The translations under genes and the position numbers were made by a program. Positions 969 to 54,607 of a stretch of DNA of 64,000 bases are shown here, piece by piece. Position 1 is the first letter of the stretch. Each line of letters opens with the position of its first letter. The notes under the pieces are model-generated. The model worked only from the letters and a program-made list of their open reading frames with translations. It did no database searches and had not been told where the DNA came from. The stretch is from a virus (lineage: Duplodnaviria > Heunggongvirae > Uroviricota > Caudoviricetes): IMG/VR virus record IMGVR_UViG_3300037421_000080, positions 42,086 through 106,085 of that record, one strand, 5' to 3'.

Positions 969-1505
969 ATGTCTGAAAGCAATTATACCGAAATTCGATT
1001 TCGGAACCTAAAGTTTCTTGGATTTCCGAATCATGCGGTGGGGACAGATGCGAGTATTTGGTCGAAAGCGAAAAGATGGAAAGGCGGCAAGAAGTGGAAG
1101 AGGATGAAGATCAACAAGTGGGATAGGTATTGTACAGTGGTTTTGACCTATAAAGGGATCGAGAAAACATTCGGAGTCGCTGGCCTAGTTCTTCTTGCTT
1201 TTGTAGGGCCTAAACCGGAAGGCATGGTGATCAGACACTTTCCTGATCGAAACATAGAAAACAACTGCCTTGAGAATTTGAGCTACGGAACTCCGAAGCA
1301 GAATGGGGAAGACATGGTTGTCCACGGAATGAGCTTGAGGGGGGAGAAGAACCCCAAGGCAAAGTTGACTAAGGAAGAAGTTCTGGAGATACGTCAGCTC
1401 TATGCTACGGGCCGGTATTTTCAAAAGGATCTTGGCAAAAGGTTTGGGGTAGGTCAGGACATAATCAGCAGTATCCATCTGCGGAAGATTTGGAAGCATA
1501 TTTAG
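969..1505 (+). CDS. HNH homing endonuclease
   Basis: His-Me finger motif HFPDRNIENNCLENL...N. C-terminal NUMOD-like helix typical of phage HNH_3 endonucleases. Local GC clearly lower than the surroundings. Confidence 0.8.
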   Translation: MSESNYTEIRFRNLKFLGFPNHAVGTDASIWSKAKRWKGGKKWKRMKINKWDRYCTVVLTYKGIEKTFGVAGLVLLAFVGPKPEGMVIRHFPDRNIENNCLENLSYGTPKQNGEDMVVHGMSLRGEKNPKAKLTKEEVLEIRQLYATGRYFQKDLGKRFGVGQDIISSIHLRKIWKHI

Positions 1506-5452: not shown

Positions 5453-6802
5453 ATGGCTACTAATAGATGGCTTGGCGGAGCGCCCCTCAATGCTCAGGTG
5501 AATCAATATGCAATCAGCGGCACTGGTGGAGGCACCGGGTTCACTGCCGGGGACCAGGTCACGTTCACCTATCTCAACGTTAATTACCCTAGTAACTCCA
5601 TAGCTTTCCCCTATACTTTGTCTACCGCCGATGTTGCGACTATTGGGGCCGTGATTTCCGGCCTGATGGTTGCCTACAACACTCTTCCTGCAGCCAACTA
5701 CCCCCAGTTCACGGAGCAGATTGCTAGCGGTTGGCAGTCTAGCGGAACCCTTCTCCTGATCGCCAACACGCCGGGCAAGCAATTCCGCTGCAATATATCC
5801 ACCAATAGCGCCACTGGAAAGATAGACAGGGTCGCGTCCTCCTCCGGAACACTCTTGACTCTCAATCAAGGGCCAAATGACTACGCCGTCAGCGGAAACT
5901 GGTCGCTGGGCGCTTATCCTGTTTCCGGCTCCGTGGTCGTGCTGGACCAGCCTGGAGCAATCAAGTACAATCTGGAGGCATCCTCGGGTGTTGTGTTTTC
6001 CGGGCTGGCTATCTTGCCAGGATTCTCCGCTGCTGGGAACTCCCAGCTTGGCTTGCTTCAGGTGAACGTCGATAACTCCCCCTATACCTATCCCGAGTAC
6101 CGCTCCACTTATCTGCGAGCGAACATGCAGATCCTGACCGTGAATACCGACGCTACACTCATGCGGATCGACCTGCAATCTGGATATGCGCCAGGTCCGG
6201 TGTCGGGGGCCTGCCTCGCGACCATCCTCAACACAGGGACGGGAACGGAGGCCAATCCAAACATGGAAGCTCTAGCCCTCAAGGGTCCCAATATATGGAA
6301 CACGATGAATGTGCTTGGTGGACAGGTGGGGAGTTGTGTTCTGGAAGGGGAGATCGCTGGCTTCTCCAATCTTCTAGTAGATGGTGGGGCAGCCGTCCGC
6401 TGCGGCGATGGCGTGACTTTCACCACTCCGGGGCTTGTAACGGTCAATAGTGGCTCTCTCCAGATCAATTCAGCAGCAGCTTCTGTGATTGTCAATGGCG
6501 GTAGCGTGATTGTTGCTGGGGTTGGGGCATACACCACGATCAGTGTCTGGGCCAATAGCACGTTGGCCTATGCTGCAACAGGCGTTATCACTACCCTGAA
6601 TGTCGCGGGAGCTGTTACGATCTCCCCGCCGCAGGCAACTAACGTGGTGGTCACTAATACCAACTTGTATGGTGCTGGCAGCTTGACCTACAACAGCCAC
6701 TTTGTAACGCTCACAAATCCAGCCAAGCTGGTAGGCACGAGCTTGCAGCAGTTTACTCTCAATATCGGAATCAATGCCTCTGTCCAGACGGCTGGACTGT
6801 GA
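5453..6802 (+). CDS. tail fiber/spike-like protein (beta-helix-like repeats)
   Basis: AGAGGAG SD. Repetitive Thr/Val/Gly/Asn-rich strands (..VTISPPQATNVVVTNTNLYGAGSLTYNS..) typical of beta-helical receptor-binding proteins. Confidence 0.5.
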   Translation: MATNRWLGGAPLNAQVNQYAISGTGGGTGFTAGDQVTFTYLNVNYPSNSIAFPYTLSTADVATIGAVISGLMVAYNTLPAANYPQFTEQIASGWQSSGTLLLIANTPGKQFRCNISTNSATGKIDRVASSSGTLLTLNQGPNDYAVSGNWSLGAYPVSGSVVVLDQPGAIKYNLEASSGVVFSGLAILPGFSAAGNSQLGLLQVNVDNSPYTYPEYRSTYLRANMQILTVNTDATLMRIDLQSGYAPGPVSGACLATILNTGTGTEANPNMEALALKGPNIWNTMNVLGGQVGSCVLEGEIAGFSNLLVDGGAAVRCGDGVTFTTPGLVTVNSGSLQINSAAASVIVNGGSVIVAGVGAYTTISVWANSTLAYAATGVITTLNVAGAVTISPPQATNVVVTNTNLYGAGSLTYNSHFVTLTNPAKLVGTSLQQFTLNIGINASVQTAGL

Positions 6803-6808
6803 TGAACC

Positions 6809-9373
6809 ATGCCAAATGCTCCTCCTTCGTTTCTGTTGACCTTCGCCGGCGTGCCCTTCGTTGCCGACAAGCCCACCAATTTCAATCTTGATATGGTGGA
6901 GGCATACCGTCGCCCAGACCAGGAGCCGGATCTTACCCACACTATCTCCCAGGATCTCATCGAGGAGATCGAGCGCCTTCTGAATACCCGTTACTTTCAG
7001 GACGTAATCGCGGAAGACAGTCGGCCTGGTGCTCCTCTGGATACTCTGGCAACCAGGGCTCCGGCCTATGAGCGAAATCCGTCTGACATCCACATTGGGG
7101 ACTGGTTCTACCCGACGGGTGCTCTCCGCTGGTCCACGTTCCGGGGCCTGATGACTTCCTCTCAGGTCAAGGCAGTTCTACAAGCCACTTGGGGCTCTCC
7201 CCTCAATACCCAATCCTCCTTGCAGGCTCCTGGCGGCCTGTTTGTGATGAACTTCTCCACACAGGGGCCTCCCCTTGCTCTGCCTCCGGGGAATACAATC
7301 CCGGTGCAGGGTTACTCCATCTCCTCCCCGATGTATATGCTTCCGCCCCGACCTCTGGGGGAACAAGGGACTACACTGAGTCAGGCTATCAAGGGCGGCG
7401 GAAGTCTGGATGGCCTCTACCTCATTACACTAGTTGATGAGCGTTACTTCTGGCGTCGACACCCGATCTCCTTCGACATCGACCAGAACTTCACATGGGC
7501 TGGAGTCCTCAAGACCATAGCGAACACTTTGGGGATTTCCCTATCCTATCAGTCCATTCCTGCTGCCTATGGGAGACCTGAGTCCGACTCCCAGCTTGAT
7601 GTCTCCTACGGCCCAGCCCCGGTGCTTCTCAACGCTATTGCCTGCACTCTTGGCTTGGTGCTGGTGCGGAGCTTGAATGCGACCTACCAGTTAATGTCCG
7701 CTCCGACCAGCTACAAGATCCTCCAGGCTAATCGAGGGCTAGCCCAGAACGTGGTGCGGGATGCAGGCGGAGATATCTTCGCTTCCGGAACTCTCTTGCC
7801 CGCTGGAGATTTGACCTACTCTCGTAATGCGATCATCCCCTCTTCTGTCAAGGTCACGTTCCCGATCTATGTTTACACGGATCAGAGTGGAGGCACGATA
7901 ACCCAGGGCGGTGGAGGAGCAGGACAGATAGGCCCGGTCCCTCACTACATGAATCCCCGCTATCAGAATCAGAGGCAGACAGTCTGGTGGGAGGATGACT
8001 ACGGTGGGAACTATACAGTCGATGTCCCTCTGCTCTCCGGGGGCTTGCAGTTCGCTCCCTACTATCTGCCTATTTCTGGAGTCTTCAATTCTGGCCTGAT
8101 CGGGGTTCTGGATGTAGCCAATGCCTTCTCCGGAGGGATCGTCAGCGGCGGCTCCTGGACGAACATATCCGGCGGAGCTAATACGACCACAACCTGGAGA
8201 CCGATCCAGACGATCTCCACGACTGCCAAGGCTCTCTACTCAGGCGAGACGGCTCCTACTCCCGTCAACGCCAGTGGGTTGATTGCAGCCGCAATGCAGG
8301 TCGCCCAGGACTTCTACGGCTGGCAAGCTGGCGTGGCCCTGGACGAAGCCTACCCTGGCACGGTCGCGTGGCAGCCAGAGGGTGGGCACGATATCCTCTG
8401 GCAATGGTCTGAGCGGGAGAACCGAGTCTGTACCCGTGTGTTCAAGGCTCCCTGGAACCAATACCCGTCCCAGCTCCAGTTCTCTCACGCCGAGCTAGTG
8501 AGCGGGCAGGCTGCGAGCGGAAGCCTGGTTCCCTACACCACGATACCTGGAGGCGTTGGGGGTCGGTCTGTGGCCCAGACGTGGCGGGACGCCCCCGCGT
8601 TTGCCAGCGGGGCGCCTACCACGCCCCTGATCGGAGGCAGCGGAAACATCGCCGCCCACGGGGCCGCCCTGGCGATGGCCAGCGGGGACTACTTCGCCTA
8701 CTTCGAGTCCCTTGACAAGTTCCCCACTCAGAACCGCTGGAAGGGCTGGGTCGGCAACGAGAAAATCCTGTTTGAGGGGACCTCCGGGCAGGGGGCGGAT
8801 CCGGGGCTCGGGGCCAACCCGATCCTCAGCGGCTACGGCTACAGGGTCAATATCGTGCAGAGGGGCATCGACGGGACGGTCCAGGTCCCGCACCTCGGGG
8901 CCGGGACAGTCAGCCAGACTATCCACGAGTATGTCACGCAGGCTCTGCCCGACACGGCCTACGGGGTTAACCTGGTCTCCCTGGAGCCCGGCCTGTTCGC
9001 CTACCCGCAGGAGGCGACCAGCGGGGGCATCGCCGGGGTGCGCATCGTTTGCCCCAGCCAGGTCGTCAAGGTCTGCGACGGGGTCGGGTTCACCCTGAGC
9101 GGCATCACCTACTACTCGGGCCGGGTGCAGAGGTTCGACTCCGTCCAGACCAGCGGGAACCAGTTTCTGAGCGGGGAGCTCTGCTGGGTGCTAGATGTCA
9201 TGTACAACCCCCTGAGCTCGGGACGGAACTATGTGGGTAAGATGTCCGACTACTTCGGGTTCACCAAGAGCGCTCCAGGCAAGAACGTGCCGACGGCTCC
9301 ACTCTACCTGGTTCAGCACGGGGTGATGAACGTCATCTGCGACGTGACCAGCGGATTGGTTGTGTTTCAATAA
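6809..9373 (+). CDS. large tail/baseplate protein (854 aa)
   Basis: Long ORF in the tail module. No family recognised. Confidence 0.55.
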   Translation: MPNAPPSFLLTFAGVPFVADKPTNFNLDMVEAYRRPDQEPDLTHTISQDLIEEIERLLNTRYFQDVIAEDSRPGAPLDTLATRAPAYERNPSDIHIGDWFYPTGALRWSTFRGLMTSSQVKAVLQATWGSPLNTQSSLQAPGGLFVMNFSTQGPPLALPPGNTIPVQGYSISSPMYMLPPRPLGEQGTTLSQAIKGGGSLDGLYLITLVDERYFWRRHPISFDIDQNFTWAGVLKTIANTLGISLSYQSIPAAYGRPESDSQLDVSYGPAPVLLNAIACTLGLVLVRSLNATYQLMSAPTSYKILQANRGLAQNVVRDAGGDIFASGTLLPAGDLTYSRNAIIPSSVKVTFPIYVYTDQSGGTITQGGGGAGQIGPVPHYMNPRYQNQRQTVWWEDDYGGNYTVDVPLLSGGLQFAPYYLPISGVFNSGLIGVLDVANAFSGGIVSGGSWTNISGGANTTTTWRPIQTISTTAKALYSGETAPTPVNASGLIAAAMQVAQDFYGWQAGVALDEAYPGTVAWQPEGGHDILWQWSERENRVCTRVFKAPWNQYPSQLQFSHAELVSGQAASGSLVPYTTIPGGVGGRSVAQTWRDAPAFASGAPTTPLIGGSGNIAAHGAALAMASGDYFAYFESLDKFPTQNRWKGWVGNEKILFEGTSGQGADPGLGANPILSGYGYRVNIVQRGIDGTVQVPHLGAGTVSQTIHEYVTQALPDTAYGVNLVSLEPGLFAYPQEATSGGIAGVRIVCPSQVVKVCDGVGFTLSGITYYSGRVQRFDSVQTSGNQFLSGELCWVLDVMYNPLSSGRNYVGKMSDYFGFTKSAPGKNVPTAPLYLVQHGVMNVICDVTSGLVVFQ

Positions 9374-10572
9374 TGCCTAGGATCACGGGATACGACCAGG
9401 CCACCTTCCCCGGCTGCTGCTGCGGCATACCGCCGAGCAGCGGCCTCGGTCCTCCGGGTCCGTGCTGTGCGGAGGTCTTGTGTTCCAGATGCAACGGCAG
9501 CTTCGCCAATACGTGCACCCTCCACGTGCCATTAGGCACATTCAACGCCACCGGCGACGCCAACCTGGACGGGGACTACACCCTCTACTTGATCCCCGTC
9601 GGCTTCGGGGTCGTGGACTGCGGCCAGTTCCCGCCCGGATCCCCTCCCGCCCTCTGGTGCTCCGGACCGGGGCAGTGCGGAGCGTCCCAGTGCCCTACCT
9701 ACGTCTCCCCCGAATTCAATGCGGGGGCGTACAAGGCGTTCTGGTTCCTGGCCTGCACCTACCCGATCGACGCGAACTTCTTTGCGTTTACCGGCAATGG
9801 TCCGGATCTTGGAAGCGGCTGGTGGCTCTCCCTGAGCATCTACACCGCTGGCCACCTGACGTGCGGCTCATACGGGGGCCCGGGGAGGGGCAACGATGAG
9901 ACGTTCTTTCAGACCTACCCAAACTTTGCCTGGAAATTTCCAACAGAGTCTGGTTGGGCTTGCAACAACGGCTCCAATCTCATGACGGCGATCGACGGAA
10001 CAGCATTTCCGGGTTGGTCGTTCGCCCCTTGGGATTTCCTGAGCGCCTATGTCCCCGGCAATTTAACTGTAGTGACCAAGGCCGGCAGCGCCTCCATGCT
10101 GGCAACTTTGGGGGGAACAAACGTCGATCTCAACCCCAACGGGGGGGTATTTCCCGATACGGTCTACCTAACGGTCACCAACCAGACCGGGTTCCCTTGC
10201 AGCATGTCCGGATCGTTCGCCCTGGCCAGGGAGTTCAGCAACGGGAGCTTCCCGAACTACCCGTCGTGGGTGGACGGAAGCCCCCCCTTCGCTGGGCCGC
10301 CTTGCCCCTCCTTTTTGGGGAGCCTCTGCACCGATTCAAACAGATGCGTCTATACGGTCGAGTTGACCTGCGGCTGCCCAGACGGGCCCTATGCACTTAA
10401 CATTTTCTCGGACAGCGGGGCGGGACCAGTTCTGATGGCCTCCTTCGCGCAGACCGGGCAGGAGTGCAACCCATTCATGATCTTGTTCGACTACAGCAAC
10501 GCCCCTACTACTACCGTTGACTGCCTGGGCAACCCCGTGGTCTTTACTTTCAAGGGATTAATCACCGAATGA
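9373..10572 (+). CDS. Cys-rich tail-associated protein
   Basis: TAATG start overlap. About 25 Cys. Several N-x-S/T motifs. Confidence 0.5.
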   Translation: MPRITGYDQATFPGCCCGIPPSSGLGPPGPCCAEVLCSRCNGSFANTCTLHVPLGTFNATGDANLDGDYTLYLIPVGFGVVDCGQFPPGSPPALWCSGPGQCGASQCPTYVSPEFNAGAYKAFWFLACTYPIDANFFAFTGNGPDLGSGWWLSLSIYTAGHLTCGSYGGPGRGNDETFFQTYPNFAWKFPTESGWACNNGSNLMTAIDGTAFPGWSFAPWDFLSAYVPGNLTVVTKAGSASMLATLGGTNVDLNPNGGVFPDTVYLTVTNQTGFPCSMSGSFALAREFSNGSFPNYPSWVDGSPPFAGPPCPSFLGSLCTDSNRCVYTVELTCGCPDGPYALNIFSDSGAGPVLMASFAQTGQECNPFMILFDYSNAPTTTVDCLGNPVVFTFKGLITE

Positions 10573-10940
10573 AACTCTTGCCCCCCTGCGAGCACAACCC
10601 CCTTCAAGCCCTAGTCGGGCCCTGGTCAGAGAAGCAGTGCCGGGTGTGCTGGAAGTTCCTGAATAGCGAGCGCCACCGCAGTCGCTGGGAGCAGCTGGCC
10701 GCCGAGCAACGGGGCGGACCGAGCCTGCTGAAGAGGGCTGGCCACTTCGCGCTGGCCGTGGGTAAGCACCTGCTCAACGGCATGAGGCTAGTCAGCACCG
10801 AGACGTACACTAGCCGGATGTCCATCTGTAAGCAGTGCCCCATGCTCAAGGCGGGCACCTGCCTGCACGGCAGCTGCGGCTGCGCAATCGCCAACAAGGC
10901 CCGCTGGGAGAGCGAGAGATGCCCGATCGACAAATGGTGA
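10569..10940 (+). CDS. small Cys-rich zinc-ribbon protein
   Basis: ATGA overlap with the upstream gene. EKQCRVCW motif shared with the next gene, plus a C-terminal Cys cluster. Confidence 0.45.
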   Translation: MKLLPPCEHNPLQALVGPWSEKQCRVCWKFLNSERHRSRWEQLAAEQRGGPSLLKRAGHFALAVGKHLLNGMRLVSTETYTSRMSICKQCPMLKAGTCLHGSCGCAIANKARWESERCPIDKW

Positions 10941-11959
10941 TAAGCCGCCCCTGTCGGTGCGACAACGCTATTGTGGGACCATATTATCTCGGCCAGTGCA
11001 GGATATGCTGGATCTGGAAGCACGAGGGGGCGCTCGGTCATAAATATCGGGAGGCGTGGAAGTTCTTCCTCTGGGACCAAGAGGGGGAGGGCTCCCCGCG
11101 ACGGATCCAGACCCTCCAGTTCAGCAGCGACTATCAGAGAATCAACCCCTCCCTGTCCTGGCACAAGGGCAAGCTCTGGCTGGCGTGGAGGCACGGGTGG
11201 GGATACGCCCAGATCGGCCTAGCGGAATTGAATCCAGACACCTGGGAAGTGTCCCACGAGCGGATCCTGGATGGACCGCGCATCACCGAGGACCAGCTGG
11301 GGAGGGAGGACCCCCGCCTCTGGCTCTGGCAGGGGAATCTGCACGTGACCTACTCGGGGCTGGAGAACGTCAGCAACGGCATGAGGACCAGCGTCTGCTC
11401 GGCCAGGATCGACAGGGAGCACCACCTGGTCGAGTCTCGTTACGAGCACTACGACAACCGGACCAGCTGGGAGAAGAACTGGGGGTTCTTCACCCAGGAC
11501 GAGAGGCGGTACTGCGTCTACAATATCGCCCCGCACCACGTGTTCCGCATGGACAGGAAGGTGACCGAAGAGTACAGGACCCCCTTCTCGCCGGCCTGGC
11601 ACCCCTGGAGCCTGCGCGGCGGTGCGAGCCCCTTGCTGGTGGGAGACGAATACTACTCCTTTTTCCACGGGGTCTGCCTCAGGGGGAGAACCGCCTACTG
11701 CGTGGGCCTTTACACTTTTGACGCCGAGCCCCCCTTTCGGCCACGGCGGATGGTCCAGTACCCCCTACTGCTGCCCGAGCTCAGGGACCGGGGGGGCAGG
11801 GGGTGCAAGGACGTGATCTACCCTGGCGGCGCCGTGCTGCACCGGGGGCTGTGGCTGATCGCGGCGGGGTACTACGATCGCGAGTGCCGCATGTACTCTC
11901 TGGACGCCCAAGAGGTGGAGGAATTGCTCAAGCCCATCCCCGAGGAGTATCTGCGATGA
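10934..11959 (+). CDS. GH130/DUF377-like beta-propeller glycoside phosphorylase/hydrolase-like protein with N-terminal zinc ribbon
   Basis: ATG 10934 overlaps the upstream stop. EDPRLW..Y motif and C-terminal GGAVL.RGLWLIAAGYYD block resemble GH130/DUF377 proteins. Confidence 0.4.
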   Translation: MVISRPCRCDNAIVGPYYLGQCRICWIWKHEGALGHKYREAWKFFLWDQEGEGSPRRIQTLQFSSDYQRINPSLSWHKGKLWLAWRHGWGYAQIGLAELNPDTWEVSHERILDGPRITEDQLGREDPRLWLWQGNLHVTYSGLENVSNGMRTSVCSARIDREHHLVESRYEHYDNRTSWEKNWGFFTQDERRYCVYNIAPHHVFRMDRKVTEEYRTPFSPAWHPWSLRGGASPLLVGDEYYSFFHGVCLRGRTAYCVGLYTFDAEPPFRPRRMVQYPLLLPELRDRGGRGCKDVIYPGGAVLHRGLWLIAAGYYDRECRMYSLDAQEVEELLKPIPEEYLR

Positions 11960-12615
11960 ATCTGCCACCGATGTACTGCATCACCTGTTCGGCTTCCGGC
12001 AGGACCGAGCGGACGGCCAGCCACTTTCAGCAGCACGGGTTGGACGTGACTTTCGTCGAGGGGATCCAGGGGTCCAAGTGGGGGCTACGGACCGTTCTGG
12101 AAGCCAACCCCGAGGACGGCTACATCATGTCGGCGGGGAACGTGGGCTGCACATTATCCCACTACATGCTCTGGCAAGCCCTGTTTCTGCTTGGAGTAGA
12201 GGCGGCGCTCATCTTCGAGGACGACGTGAGATTGGAGGTCGATTTCAAGAAGAGATTACAAAGAGCGCTGGGTCTACTGCCCGAGGATTGGCAGATGGCC
12301 TATGTCGGCTCGTTCGGGACGGAGTTCAAACCCATCCAGTGGGCCAGACCCCCCTGGGCCAGAGTTCTTGATCCCTTCGGCTTGCACTGCTATCTGGTGA
12401 GGAGATCTGTCCTCCCCATCCTACTTGAAACTAACCGAGAAGCCCGAACGCACATCGACATCCAAATCATTGAGAACAGTTTCCCCCGCTTGAGCTACTA
12501 CGTCTGCTGGCCGTCGCTGGCGGGCCAGCATAGTGGCGAGGGAAATTGGCCCCACACCACGGGGGATAACCTCCTGCCGTTCCCCGGAGAGAACCGTGCT
12601 CCAGCAGTGCCTTGA
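11956..12615 (+). CDS. glycosyltransferase family 25 (LPS/LOS-type)
   Basis: ATGA overlap. N-terminal I.L..A.ER......L...GL...F pattern and GCTLSHYMLWQ..IFEDD block characteristic of GT25 (Lic2A/LgtB-like). Confidence 0.65.
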   Translation: MNLPPMYCITCSASGRTERTASHFQQHGLDVTFVEGIQGSKWGLRTVLEANPEDGYIMSAGNVGCTLSHYMLWQALFLLGVEAALIFEDDVRLEVDFKKRLQRALGLLPEDWQMAYVGSFGTEFKPIQWARPPWARVLDPFGLHCYLVRRSVLPILLETNREARTHIDIQIIENSFPRLSYYVCWPSLAGQHSGEGNWPHTTGDNLLPFPGENRAPAVP

Positions 12616-13192
12616 GTCCATCGAATACGGCTGGTGCTCCATACAGAAGGCTCGTGAGTTGTGCCGCTTGATCGTCAAGACGAAGCCCGAGCTGGTCGTC
12701 GAGATTGGGGTATTCGGGGGGAAGTCCCTGGTGCCCCAGGCTCTGACCATGAAGTGGATGGGTCGAGGCAAGATCGTCGGGATCGACCCCTGGAGCAGAG
12801 AGGAGGCTCTGGTTGGCGACGAGGGCGAGGGGCACGCGAGGTGGTGGAGCGGGCTGGACTTTGAGGGGATCTACCGGTGTTGCCTCCGGGCGATCGAGAA
12901 CCACCAGGTCCAGGGCCACTGCGAGCTGCTGCGAATGACCAGCGAGCAGGCGGCTCTCAGGTTTTTACCGAGCAGCATAGACATCCTCCACATCGACGGG
13001 AACCACAGCGAGGGGGCGAGCTGCCGCGACGTGGAGCTGTGGGTCCCCAGGCTCAGGGGCGGTGGCCATCTCTGGTTCGACGACGCGGATTGGGCGTCGA
13101 CCCAGAGGGCGGTGGCCGTACTCAATAAGAAGCTGTCAAGAATCGAGAACGTAGGAAACTGCTTCCTCTATCAAAACATGGGGTCGCCATGA
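12596..13192 (+). CDS. class I SAM-dependent methyltransferase (TylF/MycF-like, Methyltransf_24)
   Basis: GTG start candidate at 12596. ELVVEIGVFGGKSL SAM-binding motif and IDILHIDGNHS..WFDDADW block typical of sugar O-methyltransferases. Confidence 0.55.
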   Translation: MLQQCLESIEYGWCSIQKARELCRLIVKTKPELVVEIGVFGGKSLVPQALTMKWMGRGKIVGIDPWSREEALVGDEGEGHARWWSGLDFEGIYRCCLRAIENHQVQGHCELLRMTSEQAALRFLPSSIDILHIDGNHSEGASCRDVELWVPRLRGGGHLWFDDADWASTQRAVAVLNKKLSRIENVGNCFLYQNMGSP

Positions 13193-13404
13193 TCATCGGT
13201 CTAGGCACTGGCGAGAAGGCTGTTTGCAGTTTATGCAACCTACCCATTAAGGGTATACTGGAATCGGACTTAAAACGCAAACTGAGGGAGCATCTGTCCA
13301 TCTACCACGGCAGAATGATGGTAACGATCAAGGAGCGGAAGGACGGAAACTGGGAGATGCATGGCATCCGCTGGAAGCATGACATGGACCGAGAGGGCCG
13401 CTAG
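13189..13404 (+). CDS. small hypothetical protein (CxxC)
   Basis: ATGA overlap. 71 aa. Confidence 0.4.
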   Translation: MIIGLGTGEKAVCSLCNLPIKGILESDLKRKLREHLSIYHGRMMVTIKERKDGNWEMHGIRWKHDMDREGR

Positions 13405-13754
13405 TGGCAGACCCGATCTATACCGACTACATTATGGCGATCGAGGAGGACTCGACCCTCTACTTCTCTGGGAATACTTCTGTTGGGGACGTTTCCTATC
13501 GCTTCCAGGCTATGCGACGGTTCAATGGCGTCTCTGGCCTGATAGCTCTTTATGTCTCGCCAAACAACAACGGTACTTCTGGAATCACGATCACCAACAG
13601 CGGCCTCGGACTCATGTCCTTCTTCATACCCGCCCTGTTCACCAGCGGTTGGGACCCAGGGGCCTATGCCTACGACCTCCAGGAAACCAGCGTAGGATCA
13701 CATGAGACGCTCCAGGAAGGCTACTTGTTAGTGGAGCCGGATACAGGAATCTGA
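13404..13754 (+). CDS. stand-alone fiber-domain protein (paralog of a domain inside the 1659-aa fiber)
   Basis: GTG start overlapping the TAG stop. The YRFQAMRRFNGVSGLIALYVSPNNNGTSGITITNSGLG..PGAYAYDL block aligns with MQFQAKHRFEGNSGLIECFGAPGYNGISGIAVINSGLG..PGSYAYDL in the giant fiber. Confidence 0.5.
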   Translation: MADPIYTDYIMAIEEDSTLYFSGNTSVGDVSYRFQAMRRFNGVSGLIALYVSPNNNGTSGITITNSGLGLMSFFIPALFTSGWDPGAYAYDLQETSVGSHETLQEGYLLVEPDTGI

Positions 13755-13757
13755 TCT

Positions 13758-16700
13758 ATGGCGACATTCGGGAATACAGCAGTTGGCGGATCTCAGGACG
13801 TCTATCCTATCGCCAACTACCTCTTCGCCTATGGGCCGTTCGTGCCCGCTGGTAATGGCACGATCCAGTCCCTTTCCATCAACATCAAGGACGTGGGAAC
13901 TGCATCAAACATCCAGTTGGCCCTCTATACAGGCAGCTCTACAGCTCCGGATACAGGCACGTTGGTGGCCAAGACGGCCAGCATAGCCATTGCCACTGGT
14001 CCGAACACAGGCGTCACGCTAACTACCCCGGCGATCACCGGCGGGATGAATTACTGGATCTGCATTGAATCGGACGGGACCTGCCATCCAGCTAGCACTT
14101 CCGGCTTCGGGCTTGGCTATGAATCCTATGCCTCGTCGGCATTTGGCGTTTGGCCAGCCATGATGCCGACGACCTCGTTCATCACCCACGATCTTGCTAT
14201 CACTGTCTATGGAACCTACACTCCGACCTCTGGGATTGTCCTCAGTCCAACTACGCTTGCTAATGGGGACAACGGCACGCCCTATCTCCAGACGCTTACT
14301 GCAACAGGCGGAACAGCTCCTTACGCCTTCACGCGAACAGCAGGGACACTACCTACTGGGGTAGTGCTGAGCACTGTCGGTGTACTGAGCGGAACGCCGT
14401 CCTCTACGGCTGCTTTCACATTCACAATAACAGCTACGGACAACGTTTCTGCGACTGGCCTCCAGGCGTATACCGTCACGATCAATGCAGCGGTGTCGAT
14501 AACGACGGCTTCCCCGTTGACGGGTGGTAACACAGGAGCGGCCTACAACCAGACTCTCGCAGCTACGGGAGGCAGTGCTTCCTACACATGGTCCACGACG
14601 AGTGGTACGTTGCCTACAGGAATAACCCTGAGCACGGCGGGAGTGCTGAGCGGCACGCCTACCGTAGTAGGGGTCTACACATTCGTGGCGACAGCGACGG
14701 ATACATTGGGCGGAGTCGGCAACAAGAGCTTCTCGCTGACCATCACGCAAGTTATCTTGCTGTCTCCAACTATGCTGCCTTCCGACACAGTCAATACTGC
14801 CTACAACCAGACGCTCACGGCTTCCGGTGGAACAGGACCGTACACCTTCGCCAAGACAGCTGGAACTCTGCCCACGGGCATCACTATCAGCACAGCAGGA
14901 GTGCTGAGCGGTACGCCTACTGTCCTAGGGATGTTTACCTTCACGATCACTGCCACGGATAGCCTCTCTGCCACTGGAGCCCAAGCTTACACGGTAAACA
15001 TCAATGCGGGGAAGACGGTCCTGCAAGCCTCCGACTTCACTTACCAAGGATTTTACTTTATCCCAGGCGACGACAGAGCTTACAATGTTGGCCTGACTCA
15101 TCGCTATGTGAATAATCAACTTCAACTTCTCATGGAGGATTTTAATAGTTACCAGTTTGATATAGTCGCTTTCACCTTACCGAGCGGGGGATTTGGTTCT
15201 ACCATCACTGATCCTTTCCTGTACAGATGGCCTGGTGCGGCCGTCTGGGCTTTTAAGCCAGCCACTCATGCTTCAAGCCACTTCACGAACATCTGGTACG
15301 AAGACCTGGGCAGTGGCAACAATCGGCTCTGGGGCAGCCAGGGGATTGTCTATCCGACCACTGGTGTGGATCCCACCGTCGGGCCTTACAATTCAGATTT
15401 CCTCTGCGAAGCGATCAGCGTCCGAACTTTGCACAATGACAACACAGTGACCGGAGCCGCAGGGCTCTGGGGCCTCCAGGATCCCTACAACGACACCTTC
15501 AAATTGGGCGGACCGAACAACGCAGGAATCAGCCAGCGGTGTCTCTATGGTAAAGTGCAGCCAATTCCCAGCTGGTTCCAGACTCTTTACAGTGTGCCTC
15601 CCTACTTGCTGGGAGCAGGCGGGCAGGCATCTTTGGCGGCACAGGCAGGTATCTGCTCTTTCGGCTTGTTTCTAGCAGCGGTTCCCCTCCTGACCACTTA
15701 CGTGCCGCCCTTGAACTATTCCTATGGAGGATACAACGGAGACGGAAGCGATTGGGTTGTTCCATCTACCGACTTCAAGATACTGGCCGACCATCGACTA
15801 GGCACCAGGCAGGGCGACTGGTACATAACACCGGGAACTCCGAGTACGTTCGATCGTGGGATCAAGATCACTTCGGAGCTGAACTACTATGACCACTCGC
15901 CGGGGGGGACTCAGGCTTACTACTTTGCCTTTCCCACATCGAACACAGCGACGATAACCAGTGATAATCCTGCGAAAGTGATATTCAACCTCCCCCAGCC
16001 CACGCCTCCTTATTTGCCATTCGTTGCTGGTGATTTCATTTACGTTCACGGCTTCTTACCTGTAGCGATCGCATCTGTAACCGATGCTCGCAACGTCACA
16101 CTGGTCTCCTCCTATGCTGGTGCTCCTCTGACGAACGTTGAGTGGGGCTTCCTTTGCAATCCAGCTAACTTGCTAGCCAATGGGGCGCAATGGACCTCTC
16201 CAGCCCCAGACGGATTCAACCGCTGGGCAGAGACCGATAGCTACTTCGGAGGAGCTGAATGGATTGACGGGTCCACCAAGACAGGCATTGTCTGTGTCGG
16301 ATCCTTCTCCAAAGGCAAGCAGTGGTATCCCTATGGATCACCTGAATCCGACGACAGCGGATTTGAGATTCATGTCTACGATCCAGCCGATCTAGGATCT
16401 GTGCTTGCAGGCAGCAAGAATCGCTGGAATGTGCAGCCTGCTTCCATGAAGGACATCACTGGAGACTTCCACGATAAGCTCGTAGGAGGAAGTCGCAACA
16501 CAAATATCTCTTGCCCGGTGGGCCAGACATTCGTTCCAGGGGTTGCAGATCCTACAATCGGAACATTGTACGTCTTAGTGAATGGTTGCTCTCTTGGGGG
16601 CAACCTCGGATCTATCCTGCTGGCCTACTCAGTCAACATGGGAGCCAGTGCCATCTCCCTCAGTCCATCTTCTTTGGTTAGCTGGACAATCAGCAAATCC

Positions 16701-18737
16701 GGCTACAGCCAGACAATCACCGCATCTGGTGGGACTTCGCCCTACACCTACGCGATCACTTCCGGCAATGCGCCCACGGGCTTGACTTTTAGCACTGCTG
16801 GTGTCTTCTCCGGAACGCCTACCGCTGCTGGCACCTTCGCCTTCACCGTCACCGCTACGGACAACGCCTCCCTAACCGGGAGCCGGAACTATAGCATCGT
16901 AATCAACCCAGCCATCGTCGTAGTGCCCACCAATCTTCCTGTTGGGACAGTCAGCGTCTCCTACAATCAGACTATCTCCACTACAGGGGGTACAGGGCCA
17001 TTTACATTCGCCAAGACAGCCGGCACGCTGCCAACGGGCCTGAGCATAAACGCCTTCGGGACATTGTTTGGGACTCCTACAGTCGCGGGCAGCTATACCT
17101 TCACAATCACAGCGACGGACACTCCGGGGGCTACCGGAGCCCGAGCCTATACAGTCGTCATCAACGGCCTGGTCATTACTCCAACATCTCTTCCCAACTG
17201 GACTGCGGGCAAATCAGGCTATCTCCAGACCCTCGTTGCCACGGGCGGGACCCCGGCCTACACCTATGCCACTGGAGGGCTACCGACTGGACTGACCCTG
17301 GTTGGCAGTACAGGAGTAATCTCTGGAACTCCCACAGTTGCCGGGACCTACCCCTTCACGGTGACAGTGACGGATTCCCTCTCTGTCATAGGATCCCAAA
17401 ATTACAGTGTCACGATCAACGCAGCGATTGTGCTAGCGCCCACAACCCTTCCAGCTGGGATCACTACAATCCCCTACAGCCAGACGGTGGCAGCTACGGG
17501 AGGGACAGGAACACTGACATTCTCTGTAACGGTGGGAGCCTTGCCAACTGGTCTGACCATAAGCACTGCTGGCGTCATCTCCGGGACCCCGAACGCAGCG
17601 GGTGCCTTTCCGTTCACGATCACTGCTACAGACACAGTTGGCGCTACGGGCATCCAGGCGTATTCAGTAGCCATCACGGTCATCCCGCCTCAGCCTGCTC
17701 CACCCATTGTGACACAGTATGTCAACTATGTCATGGTGCAGGGGACGGATACCGTCCTGCTCTACTCTGGAACTTCTCCTGTCGATGGATTCTCAATGCA
17801 GTTCCAGGCCAAGCACCGGTTCGAGGGGAACTCCGGACTTATCGAGTGCTTCGGGGCTCCGGGCTACAACGGCATCTCTGGCATAGCCGTAATCAACAGT
17901 GGGCTAGGGCAGGCTCAGATCATCCTGCCCAACTGGATGACCAGCGGTCGACCTCCTGGATCCTACGCTTATGACTTGCGGAGGACGGACGCCGGGAAGC
18001 AGAGGATATTGGAGATCGGGCTGCTGGAGATCCTGCCTAACACTAGCAATACGCCCGATCCTCCTAGAGTCATTCCAGCTGGATCGACTGTCCTCGTCTG
18101 GGACTCCTTGCAGGACATCGACGGGACTCTGCTTCTCAACCACGGAACCCAGTTCGGGCCTAGCTGGTATGCACCTTTTGGCGGAGCGGGGAAGGGCTTC
18201 GTCATCAAGGACAACCGCTGCTATTACACATTCGTGCAATCATCGGCGGCTGCCCTAATCAATGTGAACAACGCTCCAGTCAGTAATGTGGGGGGTGTCT
18301 CTGTCCCCGCGAACTGCACAATGGCGGTCGTAATCAACTTTGGTGGGAACCCAGCTACGGATATTGAAGTCATTGCTGTGGAGGACAGTCTGACCATTCC
18401 GGGCGATGGGATATTCATAAGGTTAAACTCTGGAACGAACAAGTTCGATATCTATGATGGGACTGCTGCTACGGTTCTGATCTCCATCCCGTTTACCGTG
18501 GGGCTCTACACGGATTATACGATCTCAGTCACCACTGCTGGATTCAATCCTCTGGCTCCGCAGCAGGGGGGCGGAACTATTACTGCTACGATCAATGGAG
18601 GCAGTAAGATCATCGCGACAGCAGCAAGCCGCATTGGGAGCACCAGTTATGGGTCCGGGTTTGGGGTTGGAGTGTCTCTGTTCTCCAGTAACAGCAACGG
18701 TGAGAACTTCCGGGTCTTGTCCATCGTACAGCCGTAG
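13758..18737 (+). CDS. giant tail fiber/adhesin with tandem putative-Ig (Cadg/He_PIG-like) repeats
   Basis: 1659 aa. At least 10 repeats of ..TLPTG(L/I)TLSTAGV(L/I)SGTPT..G.Y.FT.TATD.. Confidence 0.7.
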   Translation: MATFGNTAVGGSQDVYPIANYLFAYGPFVPAGNGTIQSLSINIKDVGTASNIQLALYTGSSTAPDTGTLVAKTASIAIATGPNTGVTLTTPAITGGMNYWICIESDGTCHPASTSGFGLGYESYASSAFGVWPAMMPTTSFITHDLAITVYGTYTPTSGIVLSPTTLANGDNGTPYLQTLTATGGTAPYAFTRTAGTLPTGVVLSTVGVLSGTPSSTAAFTFTITATDNVSATGLQAYTVTINAAVSITTASPLTGGNTGAAYNQTLAATGGSASYTWSTTSGTLPTGITLSTAGVLSGTPTVVGVYTFVATATDTLGGVGNKSFSLTITQVILLSPTMLPSDTVNTAYNQTLTASGGTGPYTFAKTAGTLPTGITISTAGVLSGTPTVLGMFTFTITATDSLSATGAQAYTVNINAGKTVLQASDFTYQGFYFIPGDDRAYNVGLTHRYVNNQLQLLMEDFNSYQFDIVAFTLPSGGFGSTITDPFLYRWPGAAVWAFKPATHASSHFTNIWYEDLGSGNNRLWGSQGIVYPTTGVDPTVGPYNSDFLCEAISVRTLHNDNTVTGAAGLWGLQDPYNDTFKLGGPNNAGISQRCLYGKVQPIPSWFQTLYSVPPYLLGAGGQASLAAQAGICSFGLFLAAVPLLTTYVPPLNYSYGGYNGDGSDWVVPSTDFKILADHRLGTRQGDWYITPGTPSTFDRGIKITSELNYYDHSPGGTQAYYFAFPTSNTATITSDNPAKVIFNLPQPTPPYLPFVAGDFIYVHGFLPVAIASVTDARNVTLVSSYAGAPLTNVEWGFLCNPANLLANGAQWTSPAPDGFNRWAETDSYFGGAEWIDGSTKTGIVCVGSFSKGKQWYPYGSPESDDSGFEIHVYDPADLGSVLAGSKNRWNVQPASMKDITGDFHDKLVGGSRNTNISCPVGQTFVPGVADPTIGTLYVLVNGCSLGGNLGSILLAYSVNMGASAISLSPSSLVSWTISKSGYSQTITASGGTSPYTYAITSGNAPTGLTFSTAGVFSGTPTAAGTFAFTVTATDNASLTGSRNYSIVINPAIVVVPTNLPVGTVSVSYNQTISTTGGTGPFTFAKTAGTLPTGLSINAFGTLFGTPTVAGSYTFTITATDTPGATGARAYTVVINGLVITPTSLPNWTAGKSGYLQTLVATGGTPAYTYATGGLPTGLTLVGSTGVISGTPTVAGTYPFTVTVTDSLSVIGSQNYSVTINAAIVLAPTTLPAGITTIPYSQTVAATGGTGTLTFSVTVGALPTGLTISTAGVISGTPNAAGAFPFTITATDTVGATGIQAYSVAITVIPPQPAPPIVTQYVNYVMVQGTDTVLLYSGTSPVDGFSMQFQAKHRFEGNSGLIECFGAPGYNGISGIAVINSGLGQAQIILPNWMTSGRPPGSYAYDLRRTDAGKQRILEIGLLEILPNTSNTPDPPRVIPAGSTVLVWDSLQDIDGTLLLNHGTQFGPSWYAPFGGAGKGFVIKDNRCYYTFVQSSAAALINVNNAPVSNVGGVSVPANCTMAVVINFGGNPATDIEVIAVEDSLTIPGDGIFIRLNSGTNKFDIYDGTAATVLISIPFTVGLYTDYTISVTTAGFNPLAPQQGGGTITATINGGSKIIATAASRIGSTSYGSGFGVGVSLFSSNSNGENFRVLSIVQP

Positions 18738-21700: not shown

Positions 21701-21792
21701 CCTATGTTGCCTGGGCGACACTCACTGATGGCCACTTCGTGCCTCTGGCCAGCGGACAGTTCGTGGTGCTCAACTCTCAGGGTGGGCCTTGA
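18748..21792 (+). CDS. tail fiber with long glycine-rich periodic repeats
   Basis: 1014 aa. Dozens of GNG.G..V.A.GSG.GL.. units. Opposite-strand ORFs here are shadow ORFs. Confidence 0.65.
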   Translation: MAKLSIVAGATSETVDIFIQDSRQTVVTGLPGLVYNSSGLTCYYNFRRGASTSVTLVTLVAATSAWSSGGFKEIDSTNQPGKYRFDIPNALLASGNGRYVGIYFQGATNMSPCWIEIELTGPDNQVATNFGLSALPTANPGGSGGLVIDGVNTAAISFTAGVTFSNAGGDVFTITSSGGNGNGIVVAGNGSGNGLKVTAGATGTGAIFNGGATSGDGVDIICPANGSAALSILGNGGNADGMVVQGHGSGDGALFNSGGSGGNGITCQAHGTGSGISALGGTGNTGDGIRANTNSTTGHGINAIGNGAGHGFKSTGGATGSGINAIGGATSGPGLTITGTNDTAISVVAGGIAGNGLYIAGSGSGSGIYCTPGSTGAGIVLLGGSSSGQGMVIVTASGNGIDITPVGGHGVNVVANGSGNNGLNLVGAGTGSGIKTDKITTSGAVVFGSSFTVTTTTTLTGAVSAAAGVTFSNASGDAFVCSSSGGNGNGINISANGSGTGVKVAAGATGIGLSVAGGSSSGVGISVTTTSGNAINVLPTAGHALVLTANGNTKYGLRATGGSGAASYGAIFAAGSGSNGGGISIVGDGGGDGIDILAGSTTGIGVSIAGGGTSGVGLSITTTSGDGISILPTAGHGITITANGNKNGLNISGSGSGHGIISTAGATGNALTLVGGGTSGDGLNVTTTLGHGFNITASGSGKHGITSTGAVAVTTSPAGHGLNLVGGASSTGAGGAAGIGLKAIGGAGSASTNGAGEGITLLGGGTTTVSGANGLSSTGTGNLNGFSLVGAGTGVGLSTTVSFGAALASTFWKDITASDFSTLNSPGNILVNQLGGTFTTTSSSIFNAASLQNAPTGGGGSTAFAIWSDLLTNPEFAVPGSVGQQVALSLPRITPGAVVVNSYLGATGTITIYRSSDNFAADGRSLDIPGPSVNYWPSLSGATIALYVDGSQLCVGSVVTPTGNQVIRFEPSALQTGRFAPTVHSYVAWATLTDGHFVPLASGQFVVLNSQGGP

Positions 21793-21799
21793 TTAGGAG

Positions 21800-22510
21800 A
21801 TGAAAATGCCGAGCAAAGGACTAGGGAGTCTGCTAGGTAAGCTAGTCAATCGCCTTCGCAAGCAACCGAAGCCTCCTCCAGTCTCCAAGAAGCCCATCAA
21901 GATCGAGGACGTGAGTCCTTTCGGGGGCAAGTTCGTGGGGCATCGGGGCTATGCTCTCGGGAGCACGGAAGAAGGGAAGATGGATCTATCCCCAGAGAAC
22001 AAGGCCAAGTGGAAGCAGGTATCAAGGGAGTCAGCGGAAGGATTCCTGAACGGAGAGCCTCTTTTTGTCCACTCAACCAATGTGGTCGCAGCGCAGTATT
22101 ATGCCGATGAGAACAAGATGCAGGTGGAGTTCAAGGGGGGCTCTGCCTATCTCTATAGCAATGTGAGCTTGGAGGAGGCATGGGACTTCCTAGAGGCTGG
22201 CAGCAAAGGATCTTGGATCTGGGATAAGCTAAGGGTGCGGGGTAGTAAGACAGCACATCGCAAACCTTATACAAAGATCAAGACTGGCTTCAAGGATCCT
22301 GCTAAGCTAGCGGAGCAGAAAGCCAGGGAGCGTGCTAAGTCCGATGCCAAGGCCAAGAAGGAATTTGACAGACTCTCCCGTCAGGTAGACGACGCTGCTT
22401 TCAAGAGGGCTCAAGCGGAAGCCATGAGAGCAGAACGAGCAGATGCAAAGGAGAATGCTGCCAATGCTAGGGCTCAGGCCGAGTTCAATCGTCGTCTGTT
22501 GAACGGGTGA
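21800..22510 (+). CDS. KTSC-domain protein with Lys/Ala/Glu-rich C-terminal tail
   Basis: AGGAGATGAAAATG SD. Block LFVHSTNVVAAQYYADENKMQVEFKGGSAYLYSNVSLEEAWDFLEAGSKGSWIW matches the KTSC domain. Confidence 0.55.
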   Translation: MKMPSKGLGSLLGKLVNRLRKQPKPPPVSKKPIKIEDVSPFGGKFVGHRGYALGSTEEGKMDLSPENKAKWKQVSRESAEGFLNGEPLFVHSTNVVAAQYYADENKMQVEFKGGSAYLYSNVSLEEAWDFLEAGSKGSWIWDKLRVRGSKTAHRKPYTKIKTGFKDPAKLAEQKARERAKSDAKAKKEFDRLSRQVDDAAFKRAQAEAMRAERADAKENAANARAQAEFNRRLLNG

Positions 22511-25924: not shown

Positions 25925-25968
25925 GCTAGCCTCCTTCGGCTGTAAAAGGAGAAAGAGAAGTATTCCCA

Positions 25969-36321: not shown

Positions 36322-36397
36322 CAAACAGCGGAGGCTAGTAACCAGCCGCCCCCGCTGAGTCCTGTACAGACACAATCTGAACAGAGACCGGTTCGTA

Positions 36398-54602: not shown

Positions 54603-54607
54603 TATTC

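Follow-up and report, generated by a model that had tools for sequence, protein, structure and literature searches.

A cassette of six genes, designated A to F, was identified on the plus strand at positions 9373-13404 of a 64,000-nucleotide stretch of tailed-phage DNA (hereafter the window, covering positions 42,086 to 106,085 of IMG/VR record IMGVR_UViG_3300037421_000080). The cassette is an accessory insertion in the structural module, located right after the gene for a predicted baseplate hub/spike-like protein, and its core comprises a GH130-related protein (C), a GT25 glycosyltransferase (D) and an O-methyltransferase-like protein (E). In the best-supported reading, whose probability we place just short of even, the cassette glycosylates and O-methylates virion proteins of the tail tip or the fibres.

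An earlier sequence-only reading had described, within 9373-13192, three consecutive, translationally coupled genes for carbohydrate-active or methylating enzymes, preceded by two cysteine-rich proteins and placed between tail proteins and giant fibres, from which modification of virion proteins or host glycans had been proposed. The observation was partly confirmed, being largely correct, and its interpretation as glycan modification was partly supported. Start and stop codons do overlap, and the span corresponds exactly to the distance from the start of A to the stop of E. Gene A (9373-10572) begins in a TAATG overlap with the preceding stop codon, B (10569-10940) in an ATGA overlap, C (10934-11959) in the 7-nt overlap ATGGTGA with B, and D (11956-12615) again in ATGA. 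The GTG start of E (12596-13192) is preceded by GGAGAG; an alternative GTG at 12533, with the same end at 13192, would extend the protein from 198 to 219 amino acids. The final gene of the inserted block, F (13189-13404), which overlaps E by ATGA, codes for 71 residues with a CxxC...H...H pattern. It had no family match in Pfam, PHROG, NCBIfam or PADLOC, and is missing from the relatives without the cassette that were compared (L061, L062; L and P numbers denote loci and proteins of relatives). Consensus scans for promoters and terminators inside the cassette gave no signal above shuffled controls.

In the proposed mechanism, three soluble cytoplasmic enzymes would act on one glycan. C would transfer a sugar, most likely a beta-linked residue of mannose type, with inversion from a sugar-1-phosphate or a nucleotide sugar; D would add a second sugar from a nucleotide sugar; and E would methylate, and perhaps cap, the chain using S-adenosylmethionine (SAM). 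A zinc ribbon, present at the N-terminus of C and in B, would serve as a docking module through which exchangeable catalytic domains reach a shared target. Virion proteins of the tail tip that are synthesised late, with A, the hub and the He_PIG fibres as candidates, would be the likeliest targets; their glycosylation and O-methylation would take place in the infected cell, ahead of assembly. For the direction of transfer, the sugar, the ribbon's docking function and especially the substrate, the proposal draws on fold, sequence and gene context.

Fold and Predicted Active Site of Protein C

Protein C (341 amino acids) combines an N-terminal zinc ribbon (residues about 5-28) with a propeller of the GH130 superfamily. 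The GH130-like label given by the sequence-only reading fell just under the Pfam cut-off (PF04041, 24.1 bits against 26); profile, hhalign and structure comparisons upheld it, and C is confirmed as GH130-related despite the Pfam score. A profile search of PDB sequences returned GH130 matches at E-values from 4e-14 to 4e-16, and hhalign aligned C with Lin0857-type phosphorylases at 99.4% probability across 284 columns. The AlphaFold2 (AF2) model forms a five-bladed propeller (pLDDT 86, pTM 0.84). Its best Foldseek matches in the PDB were 7fip, 7fir and 9gph (E-values of about 1e-12, with 2.5e-12 to beta-1,2-mannobiose phosphorylase; TM-scores 0.63-0.71), followed by other GH130 enzymes and by the GT108 mannosyltransferases of Leishmania.

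The active site was mapped by sequence/profile alignment with GH130 genes from plasmids, a first batch of hydrolase type being left out. Among 97 sequences, the invariant or near-invariant positions were N71, S73, R86, E125-D126-P127-R128, E180-K181-N182-W183, H245, Y255 and D315. D126, found in 97/97 sequences, lines up with the EDPR/EDAR motif in enzymes of Teth514 and Lin0857 type and is the predicted GH130 catalytic acid. K181, H245 and Y255 were likewise found in 97/97 sequences, with N182 also present, and H245 and Y255 would represent the phosphate-site His and Tyr. By alignment, E125/K181 correspond to the E136/K184 pair, which determines beta-1,2 versus beta-1,4 specificity of GH130 (PMC12814180).

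The Arg of the HRP motif, located 18 residues past the Lys (R202 in Uhgb_MS), aligns to N197 or A199, both of which are variable; A199 is replaced by R in only 5 of the 97 sequences. C therefore appears, in this alignment, to lack the complete phosphate site of a GH130 phosphorylase. This Arg occurs in every GH130 phosphorylase, whereas the strict transferases of GT108, MTP1 and MTP2, are without an equivalent, and the R202A substitution lowers phosphorylase activity 16-fold (PMC12814180). The segment after the HRP position, in the region of the L2 loop, is also shorter in C than in Lin0857. Fewer phosphate contacts together with a short L2 loop accompany transferase-type GT108/GH130 enzymes, and beta-1,2-type GH130 enzymes can also use GDP-mannose (PMC12814180). 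Protein C is predicted to be an inverting glycosyl transferase or phosphorylase of beta-manno type.

Assignment of C to the GH130_3 hydrolase subgroup was considered and rejected, as K181, H245 and Y255 are kept and no signal-like hydrophobic segment is present. Bacteroides sequences of GH130_3-like type showed K-S-G and WGE at the corresponding positions.

Proteins D and E

Protein D (219 amino acids) is, by its sequence matches, clearly a glycosyltransferase of the GT25 family (GT-A). It matched PF01755 (Glyco_transf_25) with 63.6 bits (cut-off 24) and also phrog_2835 (glucosyltransferase). The best PDB sequence matches were human procollagen galactosyltransferase 1 (E-value 5e-11), mimivirus R655 and a bacterial GT25 enzyme, and the DxD-type FEDD motif of D lies in a segment (LIFEDDVRLE) that aligns with LVFEDDLRFE of COLGALT1.

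Protein E, judged in the same way, is clearly a class I SAM-dependent, O-methyltransferase-like member of Methyltransf_24 (PF13578, 69.8 bits, cut-off 26.3), with the Gly-rich SAM motif VEIGVFGGKS. In an alignment of 12 sequences, E36, G38, D64, D134, H137, D162 and D163 were invariant, and N136 was invariant or nearly so. The profile of 12 orthologues matched 6g7d/6g80/6h40 in the PDB at an E-value of 1e-13, 6g7d being what we take to be the M. hassiacum mannoside 1-O-methyltransferase MeT1; later matches were almost only O-methyltransferases (CCoAOMT-type, the sugar O-methyltransferases NovP and MycF, CmcI). E is 42% identical to the methyltransferase beside the GH130-like gene in L001 and 38% identical to the fused one in P0008.

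The Pfam scores bear out the GT25 and methyltransferase identities of the sequence-only reading, and a carbohydrate-active or methylating family was found for each of the three enzymes (GH130-related, GT25, Methyltransf_24). The more specific label for E, a TylF-like O-methyltransferase, stood in its second half only. It is too specific, since E had no match to TylF (PF05711) at an E-value of 0.1 or below; NovP and MycF, which are TylF-family structures, were reached by the E profile only at E-values of 0.009-0.09. The only related match, CmcI/rhamnosyl-O-methyltransferase, was weak (18.8 bits, cut-off 23.2), and TylF was matched weakly by one fused relative and one neighbour elsewhere.

The Family of Protein C and Its Domain Fusions

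A word-indexed search yielded 15 relatives of C, and an exhaustive profile search many more, namely 6,482 cluster representatives at an E-value of 1e-3 or below and 1,345 at 1e-30 or below. C belongs to a large, undescribed and widespread family with zinc ribbon and GH130 fold that is tied to methyltransferases and glycosyltransferases in viral structural modules. Literature searches (GH130 with phage tail, DUF6171, DUF377 with virus) returned no description of it, PHROG, NCBIfam and PADLOC offered no function for C, and neither the cassette nor C had a match in the GenBank phage collection at the DNA or protein level. Among the best 160 sequences, four or more Cys residues lie N-terminal to the propeller in 139 of 156 (median 9), and 63 sequences exceed 500 amino acids.

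A Pfam GH130 match at an E-value of 1e-3 or below was obtained for 37 of these 63 long relatives. Their fused domains were Methyltransf_21 (FkbM-type) in 28 cases and Methyltransf_24 in 10, with further fusions to Mannosyl_trans3, GT2, GT25, TOD1/MUCI70 and polysaccharide pyruvyl transferase. In P0054, P0090 and L015, a GT25 domain is joined to the C-terminal side of the GH130-like domain. P0090 (979 amino acids) comprises GH130-like, FkbM, GT25 and Methyltransf_24 domains, and the viral contig L015 encodes a 784-amino-acid protein with GH130-like, GT25 and Methyltransf_24 domains in the order of C-D-E. Because of the fusions in P0090 and L015, and because B forms the N-terminal domain of six family members, the three enzymes and B work as one unit. 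These domain architectures strongly indicate a joint glycan function of C, D and E.

The partners also bear on the direction of the reaction. Since the HRP Arg is missing and the fusion partners are transferases and methyltransferases, C is probably an inverting enzyme that takes a mannose-type sugar from a sugar-1-phosphate or a nucleotide sugar and passes it on, instead of acting in mannoside breakdown. Partners that are always transferases, the missing Arg and the shorter L2 suggest a cassette that is anabolic rather than catabolic. It appears highly improbable that C is a genuine GH130 phosphorylase or beta-mannosidase, serving as a depolymerase or an auxiliary metabolic gene, with D and E as unrelated neighbours. 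The closest solved relatives are beta-1,2-mannoside phosphorylases, and C keeps the catalytic Asp, K181/N182, H245 and Y255; however, covalent fusion to methyltransferases and glycosyltransferases occurs repeatedly, the phosphate-binding HRP arginine is lost, no signal peptide is present, and sugar-uptake or phosphomannomutase partners like those beside the Listeria Lin0857-like gene are absent.

The best viral structural matches of C (E-value 3.5e-17, TMq 0.72) outscore any GH130 enzyme of the PDB. They are multi-domain giant-virus proteins and two proteins of uncultured Caudovirales. The propeller-bearing entries in BFVD (A0A481Z9G3, A0A481ZE78, A0A481Z388, A0A1V0SDN7, Q8QNP4, A0A3G5AG18 and A0A3G5AFP7) are uncharacterised and come from pithovirus-like, mimivirus-like and other giant viruses and from Ectocarpus virus EsV-1. 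Some giant-virus propeller proteins also carry LicD/fukutin, pyruvyl-transferase or fucosyltransferase domains. It is possible, though doubtful, that C represents an undescribed, virosphere-wide family of GH130-fold glycosyltransferases, in which the Cys-rich ribbon would target virion proteins and methylated glycans would be built on the particles of tailed phages and giant viruses.

Cysteine-Rich Proteins A and B

Two Cys-rich proteins precede the enzymes, as had been stated. A (399 amino acids) contains 23 Cys (5.8%) and is rich in Gly, Pro and Asn, and B (123 amino acids) contains 7.3% Cys. The QCR(V/I)CW zinc ribbon that had been ascribed to both of them and to C was recovered in B (PPCEHN..VGP....QCRVCW) and in C (RPCRCDN..VGP....QCRICW), but A is without it and has a different N-terminal Cys cluster. 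The ribbon alignment showed the form RPCxCDN..GP.Y...QCR(V/I)CW to be common to B, C and relatives elsewhere.

Besides its N-terminal ribbon, B carries DUF6171 (PF19668; 29.6 bits, cut-off 27, residues 76-123), a family of no known function that is mentioned in no paper found in the literature searches. B matches phrog_13558 (E-value 1.9e-13) and aligns over its full length with the N-termini of P0048, P0077, P0028, P0046, P0043 and P0148. These alignments identify B as a separate copy of the N-terminal module to which the GH130-like domain is joined in other family members. B-like genes were also present in L014, L020, L021, L059 and L060.

For A, no match was obtained in Pfam, PHROG, NCBIfam or PADLOC, and only two real homologs were found (P0162 and P0163). 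The gene call of the Joint Genome Institute (JGI) for A (P0161, 348 amino acids) begins 51 codons downstream and omits the segment 9373-9525 of the window. Since P0162 and P0163 keep the N-terminal Cys cluster, the ATG at 9373 was taken as the start of A, and the JGI call is probably truncated. A is a candidate structural protein or substrate. The idea of N-glycosylation sequons in A was dropped, as shuffling gave p 0.11 for the window protein and only modest significance for its two homologs (7 N-x-S/T sequons versus 3.3, p 0.04, and 8 versus 2.9, p 0.004, in P0162 and P0163, respectively).

In the two closest relatives, A and B are both retained behind the hub gene. Because the ribbon is common to B and is kept together with A across a swap of the catalytic domain, described below, a role in protein docking may be proposed for it. 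None of the proteins A-F contains a hydrophobic segment reaching KD(19) >=1.6 or any membrane- or signal-like segment. For this reason, and because SAM and activated sugars are needed and the ribbons are of Cys4 type, A-F would act in the infected cytoplasm.

The Hub-Like Gene and the Inserted Block

The gene preceding A (6809-9373, plus strand) codes for a protein of 854 amino acids with 119 homologs, every one of them unannotated. PDB sequence searches with this protein and with the structural proteins of 460 and 436 amino acids gave no match, and its hub identity came from the AF2 fold search only. The top Foldseek matches of the model (pLDDT 73) in the PDB were almost solely hub/spike proteins at E-values from 5e-6 to 1e-3, including Pvc8 6j0m, 9gtr, 7aef, the MuSo2 43-kDa protein 3cdd, Mu gp44 1wru/9ki1, AFP 6rbk and VgrG, and spikes of contractile injection systems from Streptomyces and Algoriphagus were among them. 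TM-scores were low, which is expected for a multi-domain protein. The modelled fold supports a baseplate hub/central-spike-like protein, and together with the 1659-residue He_PIG protein further downstream it sustains the placement of the cassette between a tail protein and giant fibres made by the sequence-only reading. The gene is syntenic with L059, L061 and L062; its homologs in relatives have an additional 350-450 C-terminal residues that are missing in the window protein.

L061 and L062 are contigs of 106-142 kb in which the structural backbone is common with the window phage and is followed by an opposite-strand module. Their backbone reads capsid ... 208 - HNH - 173 - 436 - 460 - 208 - about 470 - [854 homolog] - G - KTSC. 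Because the 854 homolog directly precedes G in these contigs, A-F are an insertion between G and the 854-aa gene, the last conserved structural gene of the backbone before it. Because L061 and L062 pass from G to KTSC, the fibre gene H and the gene of a 1014-amino-acid protein are a second insertion, located between G and KTSC. The GC content at third codon positions was 0.77, 0.86, 0.86, 0.74 and 0.83 for A, B, C, D and E, respectively, while the remaining backbone structural genes of the module range from 0.50 to 0.73, a difference that fits a foreign origin of A-E from a source of higher GC.

In the close relative L059 (NCBI GCA_040384425.1, contig JAWVGW010008001.1, 8207-10490), the order hub - A - B is kept, followed by the ribbon fused to a different, GT-A-like domain (301 amino acids, 'SDD' motif), then by a GT2-type protein of 457 amino acids and by KTSC. 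Read from its gene sequence, L059 is a swap of the catalytic domain behind a constant ribbon. In L013, the closest relative, the GH130-like gene stands alone. From the swap in L059 and the lone gene in L013, the block can be regarded as a swappable glycan module on a conserved scaffold of A, B and the ribbon.

Relatives of C were found on 26 IMG/VR viral contigs, with 18 more in species-representative genomes, whose closest carriers were metagenome-assembled genomes (MAGs) of Planctomycetaceae, Nitrospira, Gemmataceae and Gemmatales. In 19 deduplicated phage-like loci the GH130-like gene is part of the tail module, and the 114 surrounding proteins surveyed there included virion structural proteins, a tail fibre protein and Mtd_N as well as several tape-measure PHROGs. 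Enzyme families among these neighbours were Methyltransf_24 (9), GT25 (4), GT2 (3), Glyco_transf_7C (2), FkbM and a sulfotransferase; no transporter, mutase or hydrolase was among the families reported. In 11 of the 19 loci, a methyltransferase adjoins the GH130-like gene on one side or the other, or forms a fusion with it. In L002, the order is capsid ... tail completion, about 520 amino acids (tape-measure-sized), about 300 (Dit-sized), 537 (Tal-sized) and a fusion of GH130-like and methyltransferase domains; in L003 it is head-tail joining ... 577, 295, 706 (729 by our own open reading frame call) and a fusion of GH130-like and FkbM domains. The Dit and Tal labels are a reading of gene size and order, as these proteins had no family match. 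L005 shows tail tube, assembly chaperone and a protein of 520 amino acids ... before the GH130-like gene.

Such a position raises the question of whether the enzymes could be carried in the virion or ejected, with the ribbon loading them and B onto the hub or spike for action in the newly infected cell. This appears improbable. Effectors are loaded on VgrG through adaptors and N-terminal domains, and the place of the cassette directly downstream of a VgrG/gp44-like hub gene resembles the vgrG-effector gene order. A small constant N-terminal module with exchangeable C-terminal catalytic domains is also the architecture of polymorphic cargo and receptor-binding proteins, and the siphovirus-like loci place the gene after Dit and Tal, the usual site of the receptor-binding protein. 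However, a glycan-building set of two transferases and a methyltransferase is untypical as an effector activity, its order and composition vary freely (methyltransferase on either side, GT25 optional), unlike those of structural genes, and no PAAR-like or known adaptor family was detected in the Pfam, PHROG and NCBIfam/PADLOC scans.

Candidate Acceptors: Virion Proteins or Envelope Glycans

Glycosylation of virion proteins is favoured because the cassette is expressed late, through overlapping genes, within the structural operon, and because its position past the hub or Tal gene is constant in many phages. The precedent of cluster O mycobacteriophages and the multi-domain giant-virus matches of C argue for the same target. 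Two contexts of distant C relatives were also counted in its favour, one near a flagellin gene in a Thiohalobacterales MAG (L046:1268-2104) and one downstream of a host-specificity/TIM-barrel tail protein of gene transfer agent (GTA) type in an alphaproteobacterial MAG (L038:358-10804).

Alternatively, the cassette could be a moron-like module that modifies lipid-linked precursors of lipopolysaccharide (LPS), lipooligosaccharide (LOS) or other envelope glycans at the cytoplasmic face, so that the receptor would be changed or masked, resulting in superinfection exclusion or in the prevention of progeny re-adsorption to debris. We consider this rather unlikely, although it is the main competing reading and a serious one. 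The GT25 family takes its name from LPS/LOS biosynthesis, polysaccharide-type clusters harbour distant bacterial relatives of C, and soluble enzymes are compatible with peripheral action on undecaprenyl-linked intermediates. Receptor-modifying morons often adjoin host-recognition genes, and the block is indeed an accessory, compositionally distinct insertion beside such genes. Against this, the genes are overlap-coupled in a late structural operon and not independently expressed, an integrase was found near one or two related loci only (L002), and no flippase, Gtr-type or acyltransferase membrane partners were found; a ribbon that is common with B and kept with A across the domain swap is easier explained by a protein target.

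A GtrABC/O-acetyltransferase seroconversion module was rejected as a candidate, since A-F contain no membrane segment and no such Pfam families, and the cassette lies inside the structural operon.

Several points weigh against modification of tail-tip or fibre proteins as proposed here. The candidate virion substrate is put forward on indirect evidence, and N-x-S/T sequons are not significantly enriched in the fibres or in A (6 versus 3.5 expected, p 0.11 by shuffling). The GH130-like gene of L013 is accompanied by neither GT25 nor methyltransferase. Most of the distant bacterial relatives of C are found in polysaccharide-type clusters, with PS_pyruv_trans in 9 neighbours, GT1/GT4 in about 10, GT34 and sulfotransferases, and GT25 enzymes are best known from LOS/LPS core synthesis; given these contexts and the GT25 enzyme, a lipid-linked or free glycan acceptor fits as well as a protein. 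As regards C itself, its Pfam GH130 score is below the cut-off, its active site was read from sequence/profile alignment and not from superposition, and the conserved R176 or R228 might replace the missing Arg. The window enzymes are also, as far as tested, not homologous to those of the mycobacteriophages.

Other Features of the Window

The source of the window is a 136,935-bp JGI metagenome contig, and the overall GC content of the window is 0.544. The phage is an uncultivated tailed phage of roughly 137 kb, whose host probably belongs to the Planctomycetes. The plus strand from 5.4 to 22.5 kb is a single tightly packed gene run, in which a protein of 449 amino acids (5453-6802) precedes the hub gene. 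Downstream of F, the backbone gene G (13404-13754, 116 amino acids), with homologs in L013, L061 and L062, is followed by the fibre gene H (13758-18737, 1659 amino acids), the gene of the 1014-amino-acid protein (18748-21792) and the KTSC-domain gene (21800-22510), all on the plus strand. H contains seven He_PIG Ig-like repeats (PF05345, E-value 4e-87, 7 stretches) and 13.9% Thr. G shares homology with a domain inside H, close to the C-terminal end (residues about 1316-1414, window about 17700-18000), which suggests an attachment or adaptor domain common to both. H and the 1014-residue protein, which were inserted together, are lineage-specific and missing in L059, L061 and L062. An HNH endonuclease gene lies within the structural module at 969-1505 (plus strand), and its position differs among relatives (L061, L062).

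Directly after the structural module, a minus-strand gene at 22514-23371 encodes a DUF1559 (SBP_bac_10) protein whose N-terminus bears a methylation motif of prepilin type. The DUF1559 family is hugely expanded in Planctomycetes, and this gene is a host clue and a candidate moron. A Ro60/TROVE protein with a vWA domain follows at 24275-25975 (minus strand; PF05731, E-value 4e-48; PF25045, E-value 6e-62), and a tRNA-Thr(TGT) gene was located at 36252-36322 (minus strand).

The minus-strand half of the window contains a replication and DNA-modification module. Within it, a cluster of DNA hypermodification type at 51455-55774 (minus strand) comprises a Tet/JBP 2-oxoglutarate oxygenase (51455-52390), an open reading frame without assignment (52356-53051), an ADDT amino-acid:DNA transferase (53021-53869), an FAD oxidoreductase (53778-54602) and a radical SAM enzyme (54608-55774). 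By its predicted enzymes, this cluster suggests hypermodified pyrimidines in the phage DNA.

The presence of Tet_JBP, ADDT, FAD-oxidoreductase and radical-SAM genes at 51.4-55.8 kb would allow for glycosyltransferases that decorate hydroxymethylated bases made by the phage oxygenase, and phage GT-A enzymes can glycosylate 5-hydroxymethylcytosine (bioRxiv 10.1101/2023.12.21.572611). For the cassette this is scarcely plausible. DNA hypermodification genes cluster together (10.1101/2023.12.21.572611), whereas the Tet cluster, which belongs to the amino-acid-transferase type, lies on the opposite strand at a distance of about 38 kb. For the 114 neighbours in the 19 loci, the Pfam and top PHROG families reported included neither Tet nor thymidylate synthase, and were tail genes instead.

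Significance

To our knowledge, virus-encoded glycosylation of tailed-phage particles has so far been demonstrated only in some mycobacteriophages, where it alters antibody recognition. The cassette described here points to a different and apparently far more widespread enzyme set, which counts no fewer than 1,345 sequence clusters, is found in phage tail modules across several bacterial phyla and has structural counterparts among giant viruses. Its GH130-fold enzyme looks re-purposed from breakdown to synthesis. If the proposed function is true, C would represent a new glycosyltransferase family with a probable targeting domain and a new principle of substrate docking, and enzymatic virion glycosylation would be common well beyond actinobacteriophages. 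It would also account for the way in which phages infecting glycan-rich bacteria, Planctomycetes among them, adjust the surface of their tail tips or fibres, and would provide an annotation marker for glycan decoration modules in viral metagenomes. The fusions of L015 and P0090 are convenient single-chain targets for biochemistry.

Comparison with Known Systems

In cluster O (Corndog-type) mycobacteriophages, an O-methyltransferase and three glycosyltransferases are described as modifying the capsid and tail tube (Freeman et al. 2023, as cited in PMC11600133). The cassette of the window resembles this system in having tandem glycosyltransferase and O-methyltransferase genes in a tailed phage. 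It differs in enzyme families and host phylum, and no GH130-fold enzyme is reported for the mycobacteriophages, whose targets were shown by mass spectrometry, whereas those of the window cassette are proposed. The analogy would hold by the logic of the gene cassette only.

The GH130 beta-1,2-mannoside phosphorylases Teth514_1788/1789, Lin0857 and Uhgb_MS have dual activity as phosphorylases and GDP-mannose transferases (PMC12814180). Like them, C shows the five-bladed propeller, the Asp of EDPR, the beta-1,2 Glu/Lys pair, the YHG-type His, the following Tyr and the C-terminal Asp. Unlike them, C has only 13-16% identity, an N-terminal zinc ribbon, a non-conserved HRP Arg and a shorter L2. Whereas GH130 phosphorylases are found in catabolic operons, C is located in a phage tail module, and its family is frequently fused to methyltransferases and glycosyltransferases.

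The GT108 enzymes MTP1-4 of Leishmania (PDB 6q4w-6q50) share the GH130-like fold with C (Foldseek E-values from 7e-10 to 2e-7) and use it for synthesis. In contrast, they belong to eukaryotic cytosolic mannogen metabolism, have neither ribbon nor fusions, and are in sequence no closer to C than bacterial GH130 enzymes. D has the GT25 core and EDD motif of COLGALT1, which glycosylates protein, and of mimivirus R655, although it aligns to solved GT25 structures across residues 51-123 only.

Chlorovirus PBCV-1 A064R consists of two glycosyltransferase domains and a methyltransferase domain. While the characterised giant-virus enzymes are of GT-A or GT-B fold and not of GH130 fold, A064R unites several transferase domains and a sugar methyltransferase in one chain, in the same manner as the fusions observed in L015 and P0090.

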